Below, one piece after another: positions 3,133-61,161 of a stretch of 61,161 bases of DNA. Position numbers and translations under genes: made by a program. Source of the stretch: an uncultured Candidatus Saccharibacteria bacterium (GTDB taxonomy: Bacteria > Patescibacteriota > Minisyncoccia > Phycocordibacterales > Phycocordibacteraceae); NCBI GenBank assembly GCA_964577025.1, contig CAZNVT010000001.1, forward strand, positions 1,135-62,295. The letters are read 5' to 3'. Under the pieces are notes generated by a model. It saw only the letters and a program-made list of their open reading frames with translations, did no database searches and was not told the origin of the DNA. How positions within the stretch are numbered: position 1 is the stretch's first letter; every line of letters begins with the position of its first letter.

Positions 3133-4779
3133 ATGGCACTCGACGGACACAAATACCTATTCGTACTCGGGGGAGTAATGTCGGGAGTCGGGAAAGGAAT
3201 CGCATCATCATCGATGGCGCTCATATTGAAGCAGCGCGGGTACGAGGTGAATCTCGTAAAGATTGATCCGTACTTAAATGTGGACGCAGGTACGATGAAT
3301 CCCACCGAGCACGGCGAGGTGTTTGTGCTGAAGAGTGGTCTTGAGACCGACCAGGATATGGGCAACTACGAGCGATTCCTCAATCGCGACCTGGGGCCCG
3401 AAGACTATATGACCAGCGGTATGGTGTACCAGACGGTAATTAACAAGGAACGCGCACTCGAATATAAGGGAAAGTTTGTTGAAACTATCCCGCACGTGCG
3501 CGATGAAATCATTGAGCGCCTCGAGAGAGCCGCTGGTCACAATGGCAGTCAGATATCGGTGATTGAAATAGGAGGAACGGTGGGGGATTTCCAGAATGGT
3601 CTGTTCATAGAAGCGGCGCGCGTTATGCGCTTGAAGCATCCAAACGATGTGCAGTTCGTATTGGTGTCGTATCTGCCGGTGCCAAACACTATCGGTGAGA
3701 TGAAAACAAAGCCTACACAAAGCGCCGTGCGTGAGCTCAATTCCTACGGAGTGCAACCTGATTTCATTTTGGCTCGAAGCAACGATCCTATGGACGAGAA
3801 GCGAAAGGAGAAGCTGGCAATTTGGTGCAATGTTCCTGCTCAGCACATAATCTCAGCGCCAGACGTGGCGAGCATTTACGATGTGCCGCTTAATTTTGAA
3901 AAAGACAACCTTGGCGACCTGCTGCTTGATGCGCTACGGCTTCCTAAAGATACTCCTGCGGACTTTACTGCGTGGGGAGATTTTGTGGATCGTGTAAAGA
4001 AAGGAGGACCCGAAGTGCGCATTGGTATTGTGGGAAAGTACTTTGATACCGGGGACTTTGTATTGTCAGACGCGTACTTATCGGTCATAGAGGCGCTGAA
4101 GTTTTCGGGAGCTAGCATTGGCGTGAAGCCAAAAATTGAGTGGCTCAACGCAAAAGACTTCCAGAATGGGGAAGGAGTGGAAAAGCTCGGTGAGTACGAC
4201 GGCATCATTGTGCCAGGAGGATTTGGTGAGACGGGTATAGAGGGCAAGCTACACGCTATTCGATACGCACGTGAGAACAAGATTCCATACTTTGGCCTTT
4301 GCTACGGTATGCAGCTTATGGTGGTGGAGTATGCACGCAACGTGCTTGGACTTAATGGCGCACACACCGTGGAAATTAATCCCGATGCAGAGCACCCCGT
4401 TGTCGCAATGATGGACGCACAAAAGGAAATTCTCGCGAAAGGGCAATATGGCGGCACGATGCGTTTGGGTAATTACATCGAGCACGTGGTTCCGGATACT
4501 ATTGCTCATAGTGCATACGGCAAGGAAGAAGTAGAGGAGCGTCACCGCCACCGCTACGAAATAAATCCCGCATACGTAGAACAGCTCAAGGCTGCAGGAC
4601 TCGTGTTCTCAGGCACCAGTCCCGACGGCGTACTTATGGAAATAGCAGAGCTGCCGCAGTCGGTGCACCCGTTTTTCCTCGGAACCCAGGCACACCCAGA
4701 ACTTATTGCGCGCCCACTCGACCCGCACCCACTGTTTTCCGCATTTCTTGCAGCTTCTCGAACAAAGCGTGGGGTGTAA
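3133..4779 (+). CDS. pyrG: CTP synthase
   Basis: N-terminal GGVMSGVGKGIASSS. Glutamine amidotransferase GLCYGMQ cysteine and HRHRYE motif. 548 aa. Confidence 0.95.
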   Translation: MALDGHKYLFVLGGVMSGVGKGIASSSMALILKQRGYEVNLVKIDPYLNVDAGTMNPTEHGEVFVLKSGLETDQDMGNYERFLNRDLGPEDYMTSGMVYQTVINKERALEYKGKFVETIPHVRDEIIERLERAAGHNGSQISVIEIGGTVGDFQNGLFIEAARVMRLKHPNDVQFVLVSYLPVPNTIGEMKTKPTQSAVRELNSYGVQPDFILARSNDPMDEKRKEKLAIWCNVPAQHIISAPDVASIYDVPLNFEKDNLGDLLLDALRLPKDTPADFTAWGDFVDRVKKGGPEVRIGIVGKYFDTGDFVLSDAYLSVIEALKFSGASIGVKPKIEWLNAKDFQNGEGVEKLGEYDGIIVPGGFGETGIEGKLHAIRYARENKIPYFGLCYGMQLMVVEYARNVLGLNGAHTVEINPDAEHPVVAMMDAQKEILAKGQYGGTMRLGNYIEHVVPDTIAHSAYGKEEVEERHRHRYEINPAYVEQLKAAGLVFSGTSPDGVLMEIAELPQSVHPFFLGTQAHPELIARPLDPHPLFSAFLAASRTKRGV

Positions 4780-6182: not shown

Positions 6183-6256
6183 TGCGGGATCGTCTAATGG
6201 TAGGACTTCGGTTTCTGGTACCGACTATCTAGGTTCGAGTCCTAGTCCCGCAGCCA
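6183..6256 (+). tRNA. tRNA-Gln (anticodon CUG), CCA encoded
   Basis: Acceptor TGCGGGA/TCCCGCA with U1:A72. Anticodon stem TCGGT/ACCGA with loop TTCTGGT. T arm CTAGG-TTCGAGT-CCTAG. Discriminator G, then CCA. Confidence 0.9.
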
Positions 6257-6353
6257 ACTCGAGCTAGGTTATCGCGCACGAGACGCGTCGATAACTTGGG
6301 GGAAAGTTTCTCCATCCCGAAAAGGCATACCGGCTGAGAGCCGTATTCAGAAC

Positions 6354-6381
6354 AAAAAACCGCCTTATGGGCGGTTTTTTG
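6354..6381. terminator. A/U-flanked hairpin (bidirectional terminator-like)
   Basis: AAAAAACCGCC-TTATG-GGCGGTTTTTTG, just upstream of the first CDF gene. Confidence 0.6.
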
Positions 6382-6394
6382 TTATTATGACTCT

Positions 6395-7309
6395 ATGAGC
6401 GGAAATCATAATCACGGCCACGATGCCGGTCGGGGCCTCGGTTTTGGCTTCCTCATTAACACCTCTTTTGTTGTCATCGAGTTCACCGCAGGAATCTTTT
6501 CAAACAGTCTGGCACTCATATCGGACTCGGTACACAACCTAACGGATAGTTTTAGTATTCTGTTGTCGTATCTTGCTAACCGTATTGGAAAGCGTCAGGC
6601 AGATACCACTAAGACGTTTGGGTATGGCCGCGCAACCATTTTAGCGGCCGCAATCAATGCGACCATATTGCTCGTCACTAGCGTCTTCATCTTCTACGAG
6701 GCATATCAGCGACTAATGCATCCAGAGCCAGTGAGCGGAGGTATTGTGGCCATAATTGCCGCTATTGGAATTCTCTCTAATGGAGCGGTTGCTTTTGTGG
6801 TATCTCGCAACAAGCATGACCTCAACTCCCGTGCGATTTTCGTGAGCAATTTGATGGACACGCTTTCATCTCTTGGTGCACTTATCGCCGGTATCGTTAT
6901 TTTAGTAACGCATCAAACATGGGCAGACCCGCTCATCAGTCTCCTCATTGGCGTACTGCTTCTTCGAGCAGCGTGGGAAATAATTCGTGACGCGTCCAGT
7001 GTACTTCTTGAAAGCGTTCCCAAGGGTATTGATGCTCTGAAGGTAAAGGAATCTATTCTTGGGATTGAACACATACGCGACTTGGACGACCTCCATATTT
7101 GGACTATGGGAGCGGGGGAAGCGGCGCTTAGCTGTCATATCGTCATTGACGATTGCTCTGTTAAGGAAGGGGTAAAAATCGTTAGTGTTTTGAAGCAAAT
7201 GCTCTCTACAAAATACAGCATCACTCACTCCACTATTGAGACACAAACCGAGAGCGGTCCTCATGATAACGAGCGCGCGGACGAGGGCCTGTCCGCACTC
7301 CACCTCTAG
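6395..7309 (+). CDS. czcD: cation diffusion facilitator (CzcD/ZitB-type) metal efflux transporter
   Basis: His-rich N-terminus (GNHNHGHD), six TMs, CDF signature region HNLTDSFS...TFGYGRA, C-terminal cytoplasmic domain. Confidence 0.85.
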   Translation: MSGNHNHGHDAGRGLGFGFLINTSFVVIEFTAGIFSNSLALISDSVHNLTDSFSILLSYLANRIGKRQADTTKTFGYGRATILAAAINATILLVTSVFIFYEAYQRLMHPEPVSGGIVAIIAAIGILSNGAVAFVVSRNKHDLNSRAIFVSNLMDTLSSLGALIAGIVILVTHQTWADPLISLLIGVLLLRAAWEIIRDASSVLLESVPKGIDALKVKESILGIEHIRDLDDLHIWTMGAGEAALSCHIVIDDCSVKEGVKIVSVLKQMLSTKYSITHSTIETQTESGPHDNERADEGLSALHL

Positions 7310-7330
7310 AAAAAAGGTATACTTACCACA

Positions 7331-7738
7331 ATGCTCTCTATAAAGAATAGCTTCCTTACCCTCGGAATAGGAACCTTCTTATTTATGAGTCTTTTCGGAA
7401 TGTTCCATTCCGCTATGAGTATGTCGATGGATGGAAAGATGTCCGATTGTCCATTCATGCCTGGTATGAATGTCTGCCCTATGTCTCCACTTGAACATGT
7501 ATCGTTCATGCAGAGTTTCTTCACGAATATCCCTCAACAGGAGAATCCTTTGCTCGCACTTCTGTTCTCACTCGCATTTGTCGCATTCGTAAGCGTCACT
7601 TGGTTTAAAAGATTCTTCTCGCCCCCCGATCCGAATTTAAGAGCGCTACAACATTTATATAGACAGAGATCCTTTTCAATTCTTCGTTTGCTTCAGGAAC
7701 TTTTTTCTCAGGGAATACTGAACCCCAAGCCGTTCTAG
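7331..7738 (+). CDS. Met/Cys-rich membrane protein, putative metal-binding
   Basis: MSMSMDGKMSDCPFMPGMNVCPMSPLEH between two TM helices. Lies directly upstream of copA. Confidence 0.55.
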   Translation: MLSIKNSFLTLGIGTFLFMSLFGMFHSAMSMSMDGKMSDCPFMPGMNVCPMSPLEHVSFMQSFFTNIPQQENPLLALLFSLAFVAFVSVTWFKRFFSPPDPNLRALQHLYRQRSFSILRLLQELFSQGILNPKPF

Positions 7739-7795
7739 GTCGTAGTTATTCTGCTCTCTAGCAGAATATTCTTCTTACTTATTAGAGATATCACT

Positions 7796-10090
7796 ATGGC
7801 TCAATCTAATACCTACAAAATCAAAGGCATGCATTGTGCCTCATGTGCGGGAATCATTGAAAAGACGTTCAAGAAGAAAGAAGGTGTCCATTCAGCGGAA
7901 GCAAACTACGGTACTGAAAGTGTGAAGGTCGCCTACGACGCAGAGAAGACCTCGCCAGAGCACCTCTCCAAGTCCATAGAGCCACTTGGCTACTCGCTCA
8001 TTCTGCCTACCGCAGAAGAGATGGGTATGTCCGCAGACGAACACGCAGGACATCTTGGTCTCAATCAGTCCAAGAAGGAGAAGCTCGCTGAACTTGCGGA
8101 TATGCGAGGCAAGGTGATTGTGTCTATCCCGATGGCTATTATTAGCGGTCTGATAATGGGCTGGGAACTGTTGGCACAGTTCAGTGTGCTTCCACCCGTT
8201 CCCTACGTTTGGAGTGAGTTTTTCCACCACCTCCTGCCACTGATGGCTACGTATATGCTCTTCGTGGTAGGCAAGCCGTACCTCTTGGGCTTCTACCGCT
8301 TCTTGCGCTATGGAAAGGCGAATATGGATACGCTCATCGGTATCGGTACATCAGCAGCGTATCTCTATAGTGCAATCATAATGGCGTTTGAGGAGACACT
8401 GCGCCCATTCATCAACGTAGACCACACGTACTACGACGTTGCGATAGTGGTCATTGCCTTCATAACGCTCGGCAAATACCTCGAGGCGAAGTCCAAGCTC
8501 AAGACAGGCGATGCGATAGAGAAACTACTCAACCTCCAAGCGAAGACCGCGCTCGTTGTGCGCGACGGTAAAGAAGTCGAGATACCTTCAGCACAGATTG
8601 TTCACGGAGATATAGTGGTCGTGAAGCCCGCAGGCAAGATACCTGTAGATGGCGTTATTACAGAGGGTACCTCGTTCGTGAATGAGGCGATGATAACAGG
8701 AGAGCCGATGCCCGCAGAAAAGAAAGTGGGTGATACGGTCGTGGGTGGCACACTAAACACGAGTGGCTCGTTCACCTTCAGAGCTACCAAAATCGGGTCA
8801 GAGACCCTGCTCGCCCGCATCGTGAAAATGGTGGAAGAAGCACAGGGTAGTAAAGCGCCGATACAGGCGCTCGCAGACAGAATATCGAGCATCTTCGTGC
8901 CCGTGGTACTTGTGCTTGCATTCCTCTCGCTCGGCACGTGGCTGCTTCTGGGTACTCCGTATCTTGGTTTCGCCCAAGCGCTCTCGTTTGGTCTCGTGTC
9001 ATTCGTGGGTATCCTCGTTATTGCGTGCCCTTGTGCGCTCGGTCTCGCAACCCCTACGGCTATCATCGTTGGTGTTGGGAAAGGAGCGAAGGAAGGCATC
9101 CTTATCAAGGATGCTGCGACGCTTCAGAAGCTCCATACGGTGAACACCGTCGTTCTTGATAAGACAGGAACGATTACTCGCGGCAAGCCCGAAGTTGCTT
9201 CAGTACGCAGCTTTGCTGGTCTGCCCGAAGATGAGCTGGTAGCTATTCTTGCGACACTTGAGAAGAAGTCGGAACATCCGATTGCACACGCCATTATCTC
9301 CCGAGCCGAAGAAAAGGGTCTTACTTTGCGAGCAGTAGATGGATTTGAGGCGCTCAAAGGAAAGGGTGTAAAGGGGACTATAGACGGTACTGAATACTAC
9401 GCGGGTAATGCAAAGCTCGTAGCTGATTTAGGTCTCGCACTTGATAGCTCGGTTCTCGACGAGGAAACGAAAGCTGGCAATACGCCTGTCCTCCTTGCTA
9501 CGAAGAGCAAACTGCTTGGCCTCGTTATGGTCGCAGATACAGTGAAGCCCGAAGCGAAGGAGGCAGTCGCTGCGCTCCATAAGCTCGGCATCAAGGTCGT
9601 AATGCTCACGGGAGACGATAAGAATGCCGCAGCATACATCGCTAAAGAAGTCGGCATAGACGAGGTGGTTGCAGAGGTGCTTCCTGAAGACAAGCTCAAC
9701 ACGATAAAGAAGCTGCAGGCCGAAGGGAGGATTGTGGCTATGGCAGGAGATGGCGTAAACGATGCACCTGCACTTGCACAAGCCGACGTAGGTATCGCAA
9801 TGGCGACAGGCACGGACGTAGCGATAGAAACAGCAGGCATAGCACTTCTGAATGGAGACATCTCCAAACTCGTGAAAGCCATAAAGCTCTCGAAGATAAC
9901 GATGCGCGGCATCAAGCAAAATCTCTTCTGGGCATTCATCTATAACATCGTCGGCATACCGCTTGCGGGTGGATTGTTCTATCCGTTCTTCGGCTGGCTT
10001 CTCAACCCTGTCTTTGCAGGTCTCGCAATGGCGTTCTCAAGCGTCTCGGTCGTGGGCAACTCATTACGCATCAAGTCGCAATCCCTCTAA
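7796..10090 (+). CDS. copA: copper-translocating P1B-type ATPase
   Basis: N-terminal HMA domain [14 protein letters not shown] motif ([11 protein letters not shown]), DKTGT phosphorylation site, GDGVNDAP hinge. Confidence 0.95.
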
Positions 10091-10094
10091 TCCT

Positions 10095-11114
10095 ATGGAC
10101 ACCTACACATTCCACATCAAAGGGATGCACTGCAATGCGTGCATACTGCTCACTGAAAGCGAAGTCAGCGACCTTCCGCATATTAGCTCCGTAAAATCAG
10201 ACTTGCGGCATCACACGATAGAAGTAGCAGGCGAGTTCGGCGACCGCACGCCTGACGCTATCGCGCAAGAGCTTACCGATGTTCTCTTGAAGCACGGCTA
10301 CACCGTATCCGTTGAGAAGATGGCTACAGAAAAGAAATGGTCTGACTTTGCGATAGCGATACCGATAGCTCTTGGCTTCGCCGTGTTATTTGTATTGCTG
10401 CAAAAGCTCGGCATAGTAAATCTCGTAAATACGGGCACAGTGTCGTATGGCACTGCCTTCCTTATCGGCATCATCGCTTCGCTCTCAACCTGTATGGCAG
10501 TGGTTGGTGGCTTGGTGCTCTCTATGTCTGCTACCTTCGCCAGAGAAAGCGACAAGGTGCGGCCTCAAATCCTATTCCACGTAGGCCGTCTCGCGTCGTT
10601 CTTTATTCTCGGTGGCGTCATTGGTGCTCTTGGCGCGGTGTTTACACTAAACGCGACAGCGACCTTCGTATTGAGCTTGCTCATCGGCTTGGTAATGCTC
10701 GTGCTTGGTATCAACTTATTGGAGGTATTCCATTGGTCAAAGAAGCTGCAGCCCTCAATGCCGAAGTTCTTGGCAAAGCGGGCGTATGGCGCATCGAAGC
10801 TCAATCATTCGTTGACCCCGTTTCTCGTCGGTATCGCCACCTTCTTCTTGCCGTGCGGCTTCACTCAAGCGATGCAGATATATACGCTCGGTACGGGCAG
10901 CTTCCTTAACGGTGCTCTTACAATGGGCTCCTTCGCCCTTGGTACGCTCCCCGTGCTCGGTCTCGTGAGCTTCAGCTCGTTCAGTATCAAGAACGGCAAG
11001 TATTCAGGGGTATTCTTCAAGACCGCTGGTCTCATTGTTATCTTCTTCGCTCTCTTCAATCTGATGAACAGCTTGGTTGTCATCGGTCTTATTCAGCCAC
11101 TCTTTAGTTTCTAA
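10095..11114 (+). CDS. HMA-domain fused to polytopic membrane domain (DsbD_2/TauE-like)
   Basis: ATG at 10095 (MDTYTFHIKGMHCNAC), 5 nt after the copA stop. About 6 TMs follow. The ORF-track start at 9963 overlaps copA and is rejected. Confidence 0.75.
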   Translation: MDTYTFHIKGMHCNACILLTESEVSDLPHISSVKSDLRHHTIEVAGEFGDRTPDAIAQELTDVLLKHGYTVSVEKMATEKKWSDFAIAIPIALGFAVLFVLLQKLGIVNLVNTGTVSYGTAFLIGIIASLSTCMAVVGGLVLSMSATFARESDKVRPQILFHVGRLASFFILGGVIGALGAVFTLNATATFVLSLLIGLVMLVLGINLLEVFHWSKKLQPSMPKFLAKRAYGASKLNHSLTPFLVGIATFFLPCGFTQAMQIYTLGTGSFLNGALTMGSFALGTLPVLGLVSFSSFSIKNGKYSGVFFKTAGLIVIFFALFNLMNSLVVIGLIQPLFSF

Positions 11115-11117
11115 TCT

Positions 11118-11513
11118 ATGAACAACAAACTCGTCCCTATCGCCGTTCTCGTTGGTGCTGTTCTCATCGGAGGTGTACTTCTATTCTCGGGGAAAGCAGT
11201 ACCGCAAGCGTCAGGTGGTATTGCCAATAATGTGAGTATGGTTGACGGTAAGCAGGTTATTGAAATAAACGTAAAGGGCGGATACTCACCAAAGAACAGT
11301 GTCGCAAAGGCAGGTGTTCCGACGGTGTTGAAGCTCAATACGAATGGCACGTTTGATTGCTCATCGGGTGTCCGTATTCCGAGTATGGGTATCAGCAAGA
11401 ACCTACCGCCATCAGGAACCACCGAGATAGATTTGGGAACTCCGAAAGTGGCTACATTGGATGGGGTCTGCGTTATGGGTATGTACTCGTTCAAAATAGA
11501 TTTCCAAGGATAA
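11118..11513 (+). CDS. membrane-anchored cupredoxin-like domain protein
   Basis: N-terminal TM then a beta-rich about 100-aa domain with Cys/Met (FDCSSG, GVCVMGMY). In operon with copA. Confidence 0.6.
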   Translation: MNNKLVPIAVLVGAVLIGGVLLFSGKAVPQASGGIANNVSMVDGKQVIEINVKGGYSPKNSVAKAGVPTVLKLNTNGTFDCSSGVRIPSMGISKNLPPSGTTEIDLGTPKVATLDGVCVMGMYSFKIDFQG

Positions 11514-11538
11514 AACTGACAGAGTACAATGGAGGGTA

Positions 11539-12444
11539 ATGTCAGACCACAATCATCCTCATCCCGAACCACGGAAAGGTTTGGACTTCGCCTTCGCAGT
11601 TAGCGCCATTCTCAACATCACGCTCGTTGTAGTGGAAGGCGGCTACGCGCTCTCTGCTCATTCCGTAGCATTGCTCGCGGACGCAGGACACAACCTCGGC
11701 GACGTGCTCGGTTTGCTTCTTGCGTGGGGTGCGGTCGTGCTTTCTCGGCGCTTGCCGACGAGCAAGTTCACCTATGGCTTCCGTTCAAGCTCGATACTTG
11801 CAGCGCTCCTGAATGGCGCGCTGCTTCTCGTTGCTACGGGAGCCATCATCTTGGAAGCCATCAAACATCTATATGAACCAAGTCCTGTGCAAGGTGGTGT
11901 GGTTATCATCGTCGCAGCAGTGGCTATCGCGGTAAATGCATTCTCGGCATGGCTCTTGCGCGGGAGGAAGCACGACCTCAATGCAAGAGGAGCATTTCTC
12001 CACTTGGCCGCAGACGCAGCAGTGTCGCTTGGCGTGCTTATGGCTGGCATCGTCATTCTCGCAACGGGTTGGTATTGGATTGACCCGCTCATCAGTATTG
12101 TCATTTCTCTCGTTATCGTGTGGAGTGCGTGGGGACTTTTGCGCGAGGCCGTGAACCTCTCGCTTGCTGCCGTCCCGTCTTCAATCAACCCTGCCGAGGT
12201 GAAGGGATACCTTGAAAAGCTGGCTGGCGTAGTACGCGTTCACGACCTACATATCTGGCCGATAAGCACGACGGAGATTGCTCTTACGGCTCACCTGATT
12301 ATCCCCGCAGGACATCCTGACGATGCCTTTATGGTGCGTGTATCGAGCGAACTGAAAGAACGCTTCGGCATCAACCACGCCACCCTGCAAAGCGAACTGG
12401 GTACAGCAGCGGACTGCTCTCTCGAACCTGTAGAGGTTGTATAA
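11539..12444 (+). CDS. czcD: cation diffusion facilitator transporter (second copy)
   Basis: MSDHNHPHPEP His-rich N-terminus, HNLGDVLG...FTYGFRS CDF signature, six TMs. Confidence 0.85.
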   Translation: MSDHNHPHPEPRKGLDFAFAVSAILNITLVVVEGGYALSAHSVALLADAGHNLGDVLGLLLAWGAVVLSRRLPTSKFTYGFRSSSILAALLNGALLLVATGAIILEAIKHLYEPSPVQGGVVIIVAAVAIAVNAFSAWLLRGRKHDLNARGAFLHLAADAAVSLGVLMAGIVILATGWYWIDPLISIVISLVIVWSAWGLLREAVNLSLAAVPSSINPAEVKGYLEKLAGVVRVHDLHIWPISTTEIALTAHLIIPAGHPDDAFMVRVSSELKERFGINHATLQSELGTAADCSLEPVEVV

Positions 12445-12524: not shown

Positions 12525-12552
12525 GGTTCTAACTTCGTCCAGTGCCCGCAGC
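12525..12552 (+). repeat. degenerate copy of the tRNA-Gln 3' end (T-loop to discriminator)
   Basis: GGTTCTAACTTCGTCCAGTGCCCGCAGC compared with tRNA GGTTCGAGTCCTAGTCCCGCAGC. Followed by the same A(A)TTGAC promoter junction as at 13477. Confidence 0.6.
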
Positions 12553-12554
12553 AA

Positions 12555-12582
12555 TTGACTTTCTATATTAGTGTGCTAATTT
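12555..12582 (+). promoter_or_regulatory. putative sigma70-type promoter of the 195-aa ORF
   Basis: TTGACT, 16 nt spacer, TAATTT. The -35 abuts the tRNA-like junction. Confidence 0.4.
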
Positions 12583-12618
12583 GAATATTGGGTAGAAATT
12601 CGTACAAGGGGAAGTGCA

Positions 12619-13206
12619 ATGCACAGACGAAAGAGTTATTGGAATGTAATTCCGCTCAATCTCCGTCAGGAGAACGGAGCTGAAATTCTAAGGGCTTGGG
12701 GTTTCCGTCCATGGGGCCGGGACTTCGGAGACGAACTTGTCTATAAGGGTTGGCAGCGCGTATCACTGCCGCCGGGATGGGCAATCCTCTTCGAGGAGTA
12801 CGAGCTGATTCTTGTCGATGACAAGGAGCAGCAGCGAGGGCGAATCAGCGTCGGCGACTTCCTTCCGCGCACGGAGCCCACTGGGCTCATGAAAGCTATC
12901 TCCGATGGTCTTACGGAAGCTCACGCAACCGCGGGCGAGAAGAAGTCCGAGCCTCCGGGTCCAGTGCTCTCGCTGATGACGTACATCCGCAAGCAATCAT
13001 CGTTCTGCCTCGGCGATACCGGCCCTTATTCCTACTGGGTCGAGAACGCCCTCGGCGAAAGACTCTTCGGTCTGTACGACGTCGAAGTGTCTGACGCTGA
13101 AGCGGAGGAGAAACTTCCTCAGCTCAAGCAGCAGATCGACGACTGGCTCACCGAGCATTATCCCAACTGGCAGGACTACGCCGCCTACTGGGATGTGTCC
13201 GAGTAA
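12619..13206 (+). CDS. hypothetical cytoplasmic protein (no family recognised)
   Basis: 195-aa ORF with RBS AAGGGGA 6 nt upstream. G/C-rich third codon positions, unlike the neighbours. Followed by two hairpin terminators. Confidence 0.7.
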   Translation: MHRRKSYWNVIPLNLRQENGAEILRAWGFRPWGRDFGDELVYKGWQRVSLPPGWAILFEEYELILVDDKEQQRGRISVGDFLPRTEPTGLMKAISDGLTEAHATAGEKKSEPPGPVLSLMTYIRKQSSFCLGDTGPYSYWVENALGERLFGLYDVEVSDAEAEEKLPQLKQQIDDWLTEHYPNWQDYAAYWDVSE

Positions 13207-13211
13207 GCTGG

Positions 13212-13250
13212 GGCCGCCTGTTTCCGAAAGGGAACGGCGGCTCTTCTATT
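13212..13250 (+). terminator. GNRA-capped hairpin (P1) after the 195-aa ORF
   Basis: GGCCGCC-TGTTTCC-GAAA-GGGAAC-GGCGGC then TCTTCTATTT. Homologous to 14152-14181. Confidence 0.6.
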
Positions 13251-13282
13251 TAATAAAGGTTCCCACGTCGTACCAAACCCCC

Positions 13283-13323
13283 AGCAAATGAGAAGCGCCC
13301 GCAAGGGCGTTTTCTCGTTTGCT
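13283..13323 (+). terminator. intrinsic terminator-like long hairpin (P2)
   Basis: AGCAAATGAGAA-GCGCCC-GCAA-GGGCG-TTTTCTCGTTTGCT. U-G wobbles fit the plus strand only. Confidence 0.65.
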
Positions 13324-13476
13324 GCGGGAAGGAAGCAGAGCTTCCGTCTAGGACTCGAACGCCGGACTGATGTTTTGCTAGCAGGCAAAACCAGGAGGCG
13401 GTGCCCAGAGCCTGGTGAGTGACGACGAGCCAGGACTCGCGGGCGAGAAGTGTAATCACGTTCCTAGTCCCGCAGC
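13321..13476 (+). ncRNA. tRNA-Gln minihelix-mimicking structured element, copy A
   Basis: 5' GCTGCGGGA pairs with 3' TCCCGCAGC. CTAGG (13348-52) pairs with CCTAG (13463-67). P3 hairpin is GGAAGC-AGA-GCTTCC, with internal hairpins at 13364-13440. 15 nt are identical to tRNA-Gln 6240-6254. Confidence 0.6.
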
Positions 13477-13477
13477 A

Positions 13478-13506
13478 TTGACCTTATCCATTTAATATAC
13501 TATAAA
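13478..13506 (+). promoter_or_regulatory. sigma70-type promoter of the ClpP-like gene
   Basis: TTGACC, 17 nt spacer, TATAAA, starting 1 nt after the structured element. Confidence 0.6.
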
Positions 13507-13559
13507 TTCTTACAGACTAGCCTCAGCTAGATAACGAATTACCTTTCAGGAGAATCGCA

Positions 13560-14129
13560 GTGAATCAAGAACTGTCACCGAATCAGTTCGCGTTGCTCGA
13601 ACGCAACGTGCTTTATCTCGAAGGCGAGGTGCGCGGAGAGATGGTGGATCAGGTCCATTTCAGCATTATGGAACTCGATGGAAGGGGGAGTCCTCCGATC
13701 GAAATCCGGATCTATACCGGCGGCGGCGATGTTCATGCAGGGCTCGCTGTCTACGACTTCCTCCGCCGCTATGAGGGCAAGAAGACCGGCGTCGTCTACG
13801 GATACGCGCGCTCAATGGGTGCTGTCATCCTGCAGGCGTGCGACGAGCGTCTCTGTCTTCCGTATTCGACAGTGCTCATTCATCACGTGAGCACAACCAG
13901 TGTGTCGCTCGACGAGCTCGAGGACCCTGATCGTCTAGACCGCCTGCGCAAATCGCTGCAGGCTGACCAGGAGACCCTGTACGAAATCCTTGTCACCCGA
14001 TCCGGCAAGACCAAAGAAGAGGTGCGAGACGCCTGCAAGAAGGACAAGGATATGACAGCAAAAGAGGCCTTGGATTTTGGCCTCATCGACAAAATCGTTG
14101 TATCCGAGCCCGTTAAGCCCTCGGACTGA
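13560..14129 (+). CDS. ClpP-family (S14) serine protease-like protein, orphan
   Basis: GTG start with RBS AGGAGA. Candidate triad residues are ARSMG (Ser), LIHHV (His) and KKDKDMTAKEA (Asp). C-terminal GLIDKIV. Confidence 0.8.
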   Translation: MNQELSPNQFALLERNVLYLEGEVRGEMVDQVHFSIMELDGRGSPPIEIRIYTGGGDVHAGLAVYDFLRRYEGKKTGVVYGYARSMGAVILQACDERLCLPYSTVLIHHVSTTSVSLDELEDPDRLDRLRKSLQADQETLYEILVTRSGKTKEEVRDACKKDKDMTAKEALDFGLIDKIVVSEPVKPSD

Positions 14130-14151
14130 AAACTACATTCGAAGCAGTGGA

Positions 14152-14181
14152 GCCGCCTAGTACCGAAAGGGAACGGCGGCT
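14152..14181 (+). terminator. GNRA-capped hairpin (P1, copy B)
   Basis: GCCGCC-TAGTACC-GAAA-GGGAAC-GGCGGC then TTTCG. Confidence 0.55.
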
Positions 14182-14220
14182 TTCGCAGATATATTCGTTC
14201 GAATATCGTCCCAGACGGCC

Positions 14221-14261
14221 AGCAAATGGAAAGGCCCCGAAAGGGGCTTTTTCCATTTGCT
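14221..14261 (+). terminator. intrinsic terminator-like long hairpin (P2, copy B)
   Basis: AGCAAATGGAAA-GGCCCC-GAAA-GGGGC-TTTTTCCATTTGCT. Compensatory changes relative to copy A. Confidence 0.7.
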
Positions 14262-14404
14262 GCGGGAAGTTGCCGTGGGACGGCAACGGCTAGGACGAGA
14301 AGATGTTGCGAGCATATTCTGGGAGCGGAGCGAGCCAGAATATCCGCAACGTGTACAGAACCCGTAAGGTTCGAGAGTGTAATCACGTTCCTAGTCCCGC
14401 AGCA
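14259..14404 (+). ncRNA. tRNA-Gln minihelix-mimicking structured element, copy B
   Basis: Same framing strands as copy A: GCTGCGGGA, CTAGGAC, GTGTAATCACGTTCCTAGTCCCGCAGCA. P3 is GTTGCCG-TGGGA-CGGCAAC. A different long internal hairpin is GTTGCG..ATATTCTGG/CCAGAATAT..CGCAAC. Confidence 0.6.
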
Positions 14405-14977: not shown

Positions 14978-15667
14978 ATGATCGTGGTCAAAGATTTGCG
15001 GGTGAACGTACTTGGCGAGCCTCTTTTTGAGAAGGTGAACCTTGTCGTGCGTCCTGGTGAGCGAGTCGCACTTGTGGGTCCTGTGGCGGAGCATATTTCA
15101 ACACTGCTGCGCGTGCTTGCAGGAGAAGAGGATGCAGACAGAGGAACGGTAACTCACGATGGAGAGCGTATCGCGTACGTGTCGCCGGAGATGTTTCGAG
15201 AGGGAGGCCCTGCGCTTGGGCGTCTGCATCATACCCGTCCTACATTCCTTTTCATTGATGCTACTGCGACAGATGCGCCGGAGCAGGCGATCGGCGACTT
15301 GGAGCGTTTTATACAGGGGTATCGTGGCGGTCTTCTGGTTGCGAGTTCTCACAACCGGCTCATTGTTGCCTCAAAGGTGACTAGAGTATTTGAGCTACAG
15401 CCACTGTTACAAACAGTCACAACCTATACGGGGAACTACGCAGACTTCTTGGTTGAGCAAGAAAAGAACCGTGCGCGGCTGACTGAAGCGTACGAAAAGC
15501 AACAACGAGAAAAGCGAAAGCTCGAAGAATACCTCGAGCAAAAAAGACTTGAGGCGGGGAAAGCTAAAAGCTCGCCACAAAAAGGAGCTGTCGTTCGAGC
15601 TAAAACAAAGCAACTTCAGCGTGAAATATTGGATAAAGAAATCCCTGACCCAACGCAGTTTGAGTAG
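14978..15667 (+). CDS. single-NBD ABC-F-like protein with degenerate ATPase motifs
   Basis: ABC fold-like N-terminus, but Walker A is GPVAEHIS, there is no LSGG, and Walker B is FLFIDATATD. ABC-F-type charged coiled-coil tail (EKQQREKRKLEEYLEQKR). Confidence 0.6.
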   Translation: MIVVKDLRVNVLGEPLFEKVNLVVRPGERVALVGPVAEHISTLLRVLAGEEDADRGTVTHDGERIAYVSPEMFREGGPALGRLHHTRPTFLFIDATATDAPEQAIGDLERFIQGYRGGLLVASSHNRLIVASKVTRVFELQPLLQTVTTYTGNYADFLVEQEKNRARLTEAYEKQQREKRKLEEYLEQKRLEAGKAKSSPQKGAVVRAKTKQLQREILDKEIPDPTQFE

Positions 15668-58850: not shown

Positions 58851-58900
58851 AGAGGAGTGGGTGGGGAAAATGGTGCGCGTTGTGGTATAAGAAATGTACC

Positions 58901-58985
58901 GGAGGCGTCTCATAGCGGTCTAGTGAGCACGCTTGGAAAGCGTGTGCGGGGAAACCTGCCGAGGGTTCGAATCCCTCCGCCTCCG
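58901..58985 (+). tRNA. tRNA-Ser (anticodon GGA), CCA not encoded
   Basis: Acceptor GGAGGCG/CGCCTCC. Anticodon stem CACGC/GCGTG with loop TTGGAAA. Long variable arm. T arm GAGGG-TTCGAAT-CCCTC. Discriminator G. Confidence 0.9.
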
Positions 58986-59051
58986 CCCGAAGTACTTAAT
59001 ATCGGAAGACCCGAGTACTCAAAGATTCATATTCAAGCTACAATACCTAGT

Positions 59052-60792: not shown

Positions 60793-61136
60793 AAGGACTG
60801 GTTCAGGCGATCGCTGTAGCTTCTTTCGAGAATGTTATAGAGGAAAGTCCGAACACAGGCAGTGCGAAAGCATTGATCAGCCGGGTAGCGGGTAACGCCC
60901 GTCCGCAGTAATGCGCGAGGTGCGAACAGTGACGCTTGACGCGAAAGCAACAAGCATCTCTTCGAGATGAATTTCTATGGCGACATAGAAAATGAAACGG
61001 CTAAATCCTTACCTCTGTGCAAGGCCGTGTCCAGCTTCGGCTGGAAGTGCCGCTCGAGGCGGTTGGTAACAATCGTCCCAGATAAATGGTCGTCCGTGGC
61101 TTGCCACGACAGAATTCGGCTTATCGAGCCAGTCAA
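60793..61136 (+). ncRNA. rnpB: RNase P RNA (bacterial type A)
   Basis: GAGGAAAGTCCGAACAC, GGTAACGCC, AGATAAATGG, ACAGAATTCGGCTTAT. P1 pairing GACTGG/CCAGTC. Extended -10 TGGTATAAT at 60780-60788. Confidence 0.88.
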
Positions 61137-61161
61137 AAACAATTATGTGAAATCCGCCTCT

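Follow-up and report, generated by a model that had tools for sequence, protein, structure and literature searches.

Patescibacteria, the candidate phyla radiation (CPR), have tiny genomes, and their gene exchange is little understood. Among the systems to be compared here, the staphylococcal cassette chromosome (SCC) type forms serine-recombinase cassette arrays at the 3' end of rlmH. The attP(+) site of phage CTX-phi carries two inverted copies of its target about 90-110 nt apart, which fold into a duplex target; the target is dif and the recombination is carried out by XerCD. Once integrated, the element has this inverted pair at one of its ends, beside the junction. Tandem accretion at tRNA genes, recognized by direct repeats of the tRNA 3' end and degenerate partial-tRNA repeats, has been described for instance for tycheposons (bioRxiv 10.1101/2020.12.28.424599). 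In the present study, a 61,161-nt stretch of an uncultured Candidatus Saccharibacteria bacterium (the window; contig CAZNVT010000001.1, positions 1,135 to 62,295, forward strand) was analysed, in which two related structured elements, unit A and unit B, lie downstream of a tRNA-Gln gene.

A unit consists of a P2 hairpin, a left arm, a core and a right arm. The tRNA 3' end is referred to as X and its direct repeat in the unit as X'. The last ~22 nt of the tRNA gene (T-loop to discriminator) are present in both arms: as the reverse complement in the left arm, which often extends into the genomic trailer, and as a direct repeat in the right arm, whose T-loop part is interrupted by the hairpin S3. 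P3 is an optional hairpin of the left arm at the acceptor/T junction. The units are tentatively regarded as a mobile non-coding attachment (att) or targeting module, a part of a mobile element and not a tRNA-derived gene; this reading is given a probability somewhat short of even. Labels from L034 to L130 denote contigs of relatives, L046 and L040 being the same locus, and coordinates without a label refer to the window. The tRNA gene and the parts of the two units are as follows.

6183-6256, plus strand: tRNA-Gln(CUG), called by ARAGORN; Rfam tRNA 57.5 bits
6240-6254, plus strand: X, the 15 nt at the tRNA-Gln end copied by the modules, TCCTAGTCCCGCAGC, defined by exact core repeats
13321-13476, plus strand: unit A, whole
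13321-13359, plus strand: left arm of unit A, reverse complement of the tRNA 3' end, interrupted by P3
13360-13444, plus strand: core of unit A in the minimum free energy fold, S1 (13360-13400) and S2 (13403-13444, apical loop GAGTGACGACGA)
13445-13476, plus strand: right arm of unit A, with T-loop-like GAGAA, S3 and X'
14259-14403, plus strand: unit B, whole
14259-14267 and 14290-14301, plus strand: left arm of unit B, with P3 at 14269-14287
14305-14350 and 14358-14372, plus strand: core of unit B, S2 and S4, respectively
14377-14386 and 14389-14403, plus strand: S3 and the right arm X' of unit B, respectively

In the left arm of unit A, the tRNA acceptor 3' strand and discriminator appear as their reverse complement at 13321-13329 (TGCGGGA at 13323-13329), the T-stem 3' strand at 13348-13352 (CTAGG) and the T-loop TTCGAGT at 13353-13359 (ACTCGAA). 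P3, GGAAGC-AGA-GCTTCC, is located between the first two at 13331-13345. On the other side of the core, GAGAAGTGTAATCACGTT at 13445-13462 is followed by CCTAG, TCCCGCA, G and C at 13463-13476. S3 (GTG-TAAT-CAC, 13450-13459) is inserted in the T-loop part of this arm, and X' (13462-13476) is identical to the tRNA-Gln 3' end. The (T)CGAGA directly before the conserved GTGTAATCAC resembles the 5' part of a T-loop. The 13-mer CCTAGTCCCGCAG occurs exactly three times in the window, in tRNA-Gln, unit A and unit B, and the 27-mer GTGTAATCACGTTCCTAGTCCCGCAGC exactly twice, compared with 0 expected in shuffles. The repeat shared by A and B, about 270 nt, is longer than first noted, taking in P2 and another hairpin, P1, just past the preceding stop codon. 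All the blocks on which the sequence-only reading of this DNA had relied (TGCGGGA, CTAGG, CCTAG, TCCCGCA, the discriminator G, both P3 hairpins and GAGA(A)GTGTAATCACGTT) were located where that reading had placed them. It had interpreted them as the acceptor/T-arm minihelix of tRNA-Gln with every helix strand preserved and about 110 nt unrelated to the tRNA enclosed in the T-stem. The last statement does not apply to all of the enclosed DNA: its first 7 nt, ACTCGAA at 13353-13359, are the reverse complement of the T-loop, and the (T)CGAGA near its other end has the T-loop resemblance mentioned above.

Exact patterns were scanned for in metagenome contigs and in a genome set with one member per species, which gave the first homologs: a Saccharibacteria metagenome-assembled genome (MAG), L034, a Paceibacteria MAG, L037, and the metagenome contigs L044, L046 and L041. 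L094 and L104 were reached by using a 308-aa protein as the synteny anchor, and three further units (L046 3237-3386, L091 612-768 and one in L110) by a profile search with nhmmer. The family comprises 11 full units, nine of them beyond A and B, and one partial unit (L041), all on contigs of Patescibacteria. The unit length is 120-220 nt, and a unit is situated either immediately 3' of a tRNA gene or at the distal end of DNA inserted there. In L034, L037, L044 and L094 the unit is directly behind tRNA-Gln. L046 has one unit behind tRNA-Leu(UAG) and another (3237-3386) behind tRNA-Trp, and that of L091 (612-768) follows a tRNA carrying a group I intron, while the units of L104 and L110 are within cassette arrays. 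Seven units follow a tRNA gene at a distance of 17-60 nt, all of them oriented alike, and an adjacent unit was present at only about 7 of the about 35 tRNA loci examined. The A-type unit of L041 shows 98% identity over 92 nt, and different genes follow it. L104 combines the P2 of A (an identical hairpin) with the P3 of B, and its anchor protein is only 63% identical to that of the window. The distribution of the units is mosaic and patchy, and by sequence comparison they look mobile.

Searches elsewhere gave no further members. A BLAST of the 301-nt repeat against phage and plasmid collections resulted in no match, and two 15-mer scans of viral contigs with the conserved block returned chance matches within genes only. 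Rfam, at gathering and at permissive thresholds, had no relevant match on the window or on four homologous loci, and no description of such a module was found in literature searches. Three observations were made beside the units of relatives. In L091, the intron-split tRNA gene (282-570) is matched by Rfam Intron_gpI with 37.7 bits (E=4.7e-8), under the gathering score, and is not called by ARAGORN. In L094, a fragment like the 5' part of a different tRNA-Gln (TGCCAGACTCGTCTAAGGGTGGGA) occupies 11054-11100, which corresponds to where the genuine tRNA begins in the window. The intact tRNA-Gln is located ~85 nt beyond it; this suggests a past replacement or rearrangement at the locus. In L046, the X' of the tRNA-Trp unit is followed at 3387-3430 by a second P2-like terminator hairpin (AATGAGAAAAGACTGG..CCAGTCTTTTCTCATT) and then by the partial left-arm-like TGCGGGGGCC. 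It may be a truncated second unit, or a native terminator with a stem reaching into the tRNA end.

The relation between the arms and the local tRNA was consistent across the family. In all the tRNA-adjacent units, the distal boundary is formed by X', in which, as in an att repeat, 15-21 nt of the local tRNA 3' end and sometimes a few trailer bases recur in direct orientation. The reverse complement of the left arm reproduces the T-loop, the T-stem 3' strand and the acceptor 3' strand of the local tRNA in all units, the exceptions being B, L094 and L110, where the left arm departs at the T-loop part only. The left-arm sequences ACTCGAA, AATCGGAA or ACTTGAA track the T-loops TTCGAGT, TTCGATT or TTCAAGT. 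One acceptor pair is changed in the tRNA and in both arms together, GCTGCGGGA/TCCCGCAGC in the window versus GCTGCGAGA/TCTCGCAGC in L094. The upstream complementarity passes through P2 into the genomic trailer and not into CCA; the 5' extension of the left arm pairs with the trailer through GCA in L091 and in the tRNA-Trp unit of L046, and through CAAAAC in the tRNA-Leu unit of L046. The resulting stack of 7 and 5 bp with the discriminator (GCTGCGGGA/TCCCGCAGC and CTAGG/CCTAG in A and B) is formed by all 11 units, with bulges or wobbles.

The sequence-only reading had named a lack of the 5' blocks in homologs as grounds for its refutation; in fact, these blocks occur in the homologs too. They hold no information beyond complementarity to the 3' blocks in the window, because the acceptor and T stems of tRNA-Gln are wholly Watson-Crick paired. 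The two origins can be told apart where the tRNA stem contains G.U pairs: the unit has CAGGG in L037 where the tRNA has TGGGG, and AGAGG in L046 where the tRNA has GGAGG, and in both cases it is the 3' strand to which the left arm is Watson-Crick complementary. The notion of preserved tRNA 5' strands was therefore abandoned, as the left arm tracks the complement of the 3' strand. An origin of the left arm from the tRNA 5' half was rejected on account of the L037 and L046 stems and the T-loop complement. Since the complementarity runs through the T-loop and the trailer, it is the gene-end duplex and not a T-arm that is rebuilt. By its sequence, the supposed minihelix is an inverted repeat of attachment-type sequence, i.e. 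of a tRNA-gene end. It had also been objected to a recombination role that an att site normally copies only the 3' part of a tRNA gene. The objection is not decisive, as the right arm behaves exactly as such an att-type direct repeat and the inverted copy comes in addition.

A match of ~22 nt to four tRNA species, T-loop variants included, in units that share their cores would be expected if the arms were rewritten at each move. The unit, as RNA or single-stranded DNA (ssDNA), would then pair its left arm with a tRNA end and direct insertion there, and would amount to a nucleic-acid-guided system that can be programmed for insertion specifically at tRNA 3' ends. With its antisense orientation towards the upstream flank, the left arm has the topology of intron guides (IGS of group I, EBS of group II; internal guide and exon-binding sequences, respectively), and in L044 it fits the tRNA better than it fits X'. 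In contrast, no partner protein was found, and no reverse transcriptase, IS110-, TnpB- or IscB-type gene is nearby. The left arm of L037 matches its own tRNA only partly and resembles that of L044, which suggests inheritance, and every predicted fold has the left arm tied up in pairing with X' or with the tRNA end. Such guide-like arms are considered quite improbable.

The folding of the units was compared between relatives and between strands. The folding z-scores were -6.5 (A) and -6.9 (B), and 0 of 200 dinucleotide shuffles folded as well. Between A and L034, 16 double compensatory changes were counted with 1 broken pair; the corresponding numbers were 11 and 2 for B and L094, and 7 and 4 for L046 and L044. 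With RNAalifold, double changes were present in 19 of 33 pairs and in 21 of 48 pairs of the two subfamilies. The doubly changed hairpins include P3, S1, S2, S4 and S3 (GUG/CAC to GCG/CGC in the last), and the core of unit A (S1, S2) has compensatory changes against L034, L110 and L091. The plus-strand folds contain 26 G.T pairs versus one C.A 1x1 mismatch, and stability favours the plus over the minus strand in six of eight units. The sequence-only reading had proposed the plus strand as the folding strand and P3 as a hairpin that changes sequence and still pairs. The wobble count and the strand stability agree on the former, and double compensatory changes among relatives bear out the latter for P3 and the other inner hairpins. 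The compensatory changes and the plus-strand wobble asymmetry together lead to the conclusion that a single folded strand, the plus strand as RNA or as ssDNA, is under selection.

A folded plus strand could also be a structured non-coding RNA (ncRNA), transcribed by read-through from the tRNA or the upstream cassette, whose closing helix imitates the local acceptor/T-stem stack. RNase P, RNase Z, the CCA-adding enzyme or another tRNA-binding protein would process or bind it, and the DNA repeats would be the way in which the RNA gene travels. The plus strand is the strand of the tRNA and of all neighbouring genes, the stems co-vary and several loops and junctions keep their sequence. The gap of 17-60 nt between tRNA and unit in seven units makes co-transcription plausible. 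P3 occupies the position of the D/anticodon arms, and the conserved sequence stops at discriminator+1, where RNase Z would cut. Moreover, the recombinases seen at this site, large serine recombinases, can do without a folded strand, so that the fold has no user at the DNA level.

The tests against known RNA classes gave a different result. ARAGORN called only tRNA-Gln and tRNA-Ser in the window and none of the units. The Rfam models of the tRNA clan, tmRNA and YrlA all failed on the units, with no hit at E<=10 in the window and at E<=1 in L034, L037, L040 and L044. There is no 7-nt T-loop closing the T-stem, the 5' side being ACTCGAA and the 3' side ..GAGA(A)-S3-GTT, and the discriminator is followed by CA.. 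instead of CCA. Complementarity to the T-loop and the trailer is not needed by any tRNA-binding enzyme, and generic recognition by RNase P or RNase Z would not demand arms identical to the local tRNA, T-stem and trailer included. In most members the terminator-like P2 hairpin lies immediately upstream of the left arm, where promoter space is lacking. When the tRNA 3' half was included in the fold, the left arm preferred the real tRNA end, in a hairpin of 35-45 bp running through P2, over X'. From the tRNA-like processed RNA of the sequence-only reading, the structure, the plus strand and the covariation stand, while the missing match to tRNA, tmRNA and YrlA models, the missing T-loop and the upstream P2 speak against it. 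Altogether, a structured ncRNA is the main rival of the att or targeting module, weakened by these points and somewhat less probable than it.

The junctions of the units were determined by comparing genomes. The conserved sequence stops at ...GCAGC(A), and the DNA beyond differs among genomes. X'(A)|ATTGACC opens the ClpP cassette, the next cassette beginning exactly after X'. In L102, the same ClpP cassette (84% identity over 765 nt) directly abuts tRNA-Gln at another array position, with the junction GCAGC|ATTGAC. The trailer that is 3' of the tRNA in the window and in L109 is found, in a related form, 3' of the unit X' in L094 and L110. Gene cassettes are closed by X_deg, degenerate versions of the tRNA 3' part (12525-12553, 13258-13286 and 14197-14224 in the window), and the cassettes of L102 and L103 have this X_deg ending alone, without a unit. 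Because of these, the unit is a separate entity and not an arm of every island. Four independent metagenome assemblies (L091, L093, L099 and L108) end exactly at the tRNA-Gln 3' end, and such contig ends fit strain-level variation in the downstream DNA.

X_deg(B) and X'(B), the flanks of unit B, differ at 5 of 16 positions. A target-site duplication was rejected on this ground and since the same X_deg closes the L102 and L103 cassettes without a unit; a crossover at the 5' edge of X was ruled out by the same mismatch and the same cassettes. A miniature inverted-repeat transposable element (MITE) or transposon was dismissed in view of arms that vary with the tRNA and of the unequal flanks of unit B.

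Judged by the sequence, the junction pattern is that described for tandem accretion at tRNA genes. It agrees with an ordinary double-stranded attR of tRNA-targeting islands, in which the right arm is the att core, the remainder consists of arm-type protein-binding DNA and transcription terminators, and folding is incidental. The direct repeats of the tRNA 3' end, the tandem accretion and the X_deg repeats match tRNA-linked islands such as tycheposons, and large serine recombinase islands occupy the same site. Against this, P3, S1, S2, S3 and S4 stay paired through many double substitutions, the asymmetry of 26 G.T to one C.A has no meaning for duplex DNA, and cassettes of L102 and L103 end in X_deg with no unit at all. 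A duplex attR with incidental folding is thus given a low probability.

Large serine recombinase islands are inserted at the same tRNA-Gln end in L105-107, L109 and L130, i.e. in three lineages and exactly behind the tRNA. The recombinase gene is at 15070-16389 of L109 (minus strand), and was found also in L105, L110, L111 and L130. The protein has >8000 database relatives and is extremely conserved across CPR: the best 120 are all 77-92% identical, and their names point to Paceibacterota, Parcubacteria, WS5 and even a 'Woesearchaeota' bin. From its sequence it appears to be a single very successful integrase across CPR. A scan of viral contigs with this protein gave 13 loci, 0 with a unit, L130 having the recombinase directly behind tRNA-Gln. 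The gene content of the metal-resistance block of the window resembles that of the recombinase-bearing copper islands L109 and L111, the recombinase being absent from the window block. About 140 nt of the left end of this block are common with the L109 island, and the distal part of this left end is shared with L130. In L130, the distal hairpin and terminator follow the tRNA, and then comes the large serine recombinase gene.

Two hairpin regions were noticed at these islands. A small hairpin (GGCATACCGGCTGAGAGCCGTATTC) and a terminator come soon after tRNA-Gln in the window (6300-6390), L109 (6680-6755) and L130 (minus strand, 7330-7260). Conserved in these three lineages, they may represent either a small RNA or the left border of the recombinase islands. 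A conserved hairpin-rich stretch upstream of the serine recombinase gene in L110 (7700-7860) and L111 (9680-9800), with compensatory differences between the loci, could be an att region or a regulatory RNA.

Under the favoured att or targeting module, the unit would be either a small mobile cassette of the non-autonomous kind or, in larger cassettes, their distal att module. Both arms would act in the recognition of, or the recombination at, the tRNA 3' end (...CAGC|), the folded plus strand presenting a duplex copy of the target as attC or CTX-phi attP(+) does, and P2 would serve as the terminator for the upstream tRNA or gene after insertion. Family membership, the arm-tRNA relation, the junction positions, the patchy, mosaic distribution and the strand-specific structure with its compensatory changes are observed; the role of the fold in recombination or targeting, and the enzyme acting on it, we infer. 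Several findings weigh against it. It does not account for the match of both arms to each new tRNA, as a simple target-site duplication does not fit. None of the 57 window open reading frames (ORFs) scanned against Pfam was a recombinase, and no recombinase gene adjoins any unit. The sole recombinases seen at the tRNA-Gln end are the large serine recombinases, no tyrosine recombinase being seen, and to our knowledge large serine recombinases act on duplex DNA and not on folded single strands. Finally, unpaired motifs are kept (the S2 apical loop GAGNGRCGRCGA, the S3 loop and GAGGCGG), which is RNA-like rather than attC-like. They are not universal, as L110 lacks S3 and, like L037 and the tRNA-Trp unit of L046, also the apical loop.

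Upstream of tRNA-Gln, the window contains housekeeping genes (prfB, ftsE, ftsX, pyrG and the 308-aa protein; Pfam). Downstream, the accessory DNA consists of the metal-resistance genes, a 195-aa ORF, unit A, the ClpP-like gene, unit B and an AHSA1-like gene in this order. Further accessory genes extend to ~26 kb and are followed by housekeeping genes (Pfam). The other features of the array are as follows.

6256-6390, plus strand: left end of the first insertion, with the trailer-like motif AACTCGAGCTAGGTTATCGCGCACGAGACGCGTCG, a small hairpin and a terminator
6395-12444, plus strand: metal-resistance cargo, i.e. CDF transporter, 135-aa protein, CopA-type ATPase, DsbD-like protein, cupredoxin and second CDF (Pfam)
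12525-12553, plus strand: X_deg1, a degenerate copy of the tRNA 3' part (GGTTC..CG TCCAGTGCCCGCAGCA), which closes the first island
12554-13286, plus strand: cassette with the 195-aa ORF (12619-13206), function not assigned
13212-13242, plus strand: P1, hairpin of the cassette upstream of unit A
13258-13286, plus strand: X_deg(A)
13282-13324, plus strand: P2(A), long terminator-like hairpin with GNRA loop and U-tract, joining X_deg(A) to the left arm
13477-14224, plus strand: ClpP-like cassette, ORF 13560-14129, Pfam CLP_protease 1.7e-27
13478-13506, plus strand: promoter-like TTGACC-17 nt-TATAAA of the ClpP-like cassette
14151-14181, plus strand: P1(B)
14197-14224, plus strand: X_deg(B)
14220-14262, plus strand: P2(B), terminator-like hairpin with compensatory differences from P2(A)

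The cassette after X_deg1 opens at 12554 with ATTGACTTTCTAT. The ClpP-like 189-aa gene is a self-contained travelling cassette (13477-14224), having its own terminator besides the promoter-like sequence. An ABC-F-like ORF of just 229 aa (ABC_tran and ABC_tran_Xtn; 14978-15667) in the variable region is probably a truncated gene. At the far end of the window, a bacterial class A RNase P RNA (60795-61139, 117 bits) lies near tRNA-Ser (58900-58988), and no unit was present behind this tRNA-Ser.

The locus can be described as a hypervariable cassette array seeded at tRNA-Gln and punctuated by a conserved structured module; its metal-resistance, ClpP-like and other cassettes recur in differing orders among relatives. 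If the module is a recombination or targeting device, it would represent a new mode of building cassette arrays, with integron-like logic and a tRNA end as the target. The specificity of this compact element would then reside in two ~22-nt arms, which opens the choice of target to direct tests and perhaps to reprogramming. In the case of an RNA, the module would be a novel mimic of tRNA ends borne by mobile DNA. Either reading accounts for the assembly breaks at tRNA-Gln and makes the unit a marker for genomic islands. It is rather unlikely, though worth considering, that the units are a previously undescribed class of miniature mobile elements of Patescibacteria, with arms templated on the occupied tRNA gene (Gln, Leu, Trp, intron-containing). 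Such a class would imply target-templated or nucleic-acid-guided insertion, or recombination gated by a folded strand, without a cis-encoded protein.

In comparison with tRNA-like RNAs (the tmRNA domain, YrlA, viral tRNA-like structures and mascRNA), the units have a helix that equals an acceptor/T-stem stack in length and sequence; a hairpin branches off at the 7/49 junction, and the discriminator base is kept. In contrast, they have no T-loop/D-loop elbow, no CCA and no Ro/Rsr or SmpB context, and are not matched by the models of tRNA, tmRNA, YrlA or mascRNA. Their 5' strand complements the 3' strand, T-loop and trailer and is not tRNA-derived. Retroviral and long terminal repeat (LTR) primer-binding sites likewise have ~20 nt complementary to the 3' end of one specific tRNA. 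The units differ from them in that the complementarity follows the genomic trailer and not the mature CCA, and in the absence of a reverse transcriptase; a primer-binding site for mature tRNA was rejected for the former difference.

The units share more traits with the attC sites of integrons: the location at the cassette 3' end in an array with the next cassette starting right after, the imperfect inverted repeat with a variable centre and structure kept over sequence, the one folding strand and the bulged bases (an extra T in the left arms of L034, L046, L044 and L037). However, the units have no R''/L''-L'/R' boxes (RYYYAAC/GTTRRRY), and their ends, GCTGCGGGA ... TCCCGCAGC, vary with the tRNA. 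The core has several conserved hairpins, and the cassettes bring promoter-like sequences of their own. None of the 57 window ORFs was a Phage_integrase or IntI, and no attI was seen. With CTX-phi attP(+), the units have the topology in common, in the order left arm, core and X'|downstream. They differ in targeting a tRNA 3' end, in the length of ~200 nt and in lacking phage genes, and no Xer link was shown.

The arrays formed by tRNA-linked elements (tycheposons, bioRxiv 10.1101/2020.12.28.424599) and SCC resemble the present locus in repeated insertion at the 3' end of one gene, where newer elements push older ones outward. Further points in common are that each boundary has the target end as a direct repeat, that a recombinase is missing from many elements and that some relatives carry a large serine recombinase. 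In those arrays we know of no structured non-coding module with an inverted target copy and co-varying hairpins. The units are best placed near known kinds, i.e. att-repeat-bounded cassette arrays and folded att sites, with a real chance that they are something more unusual.

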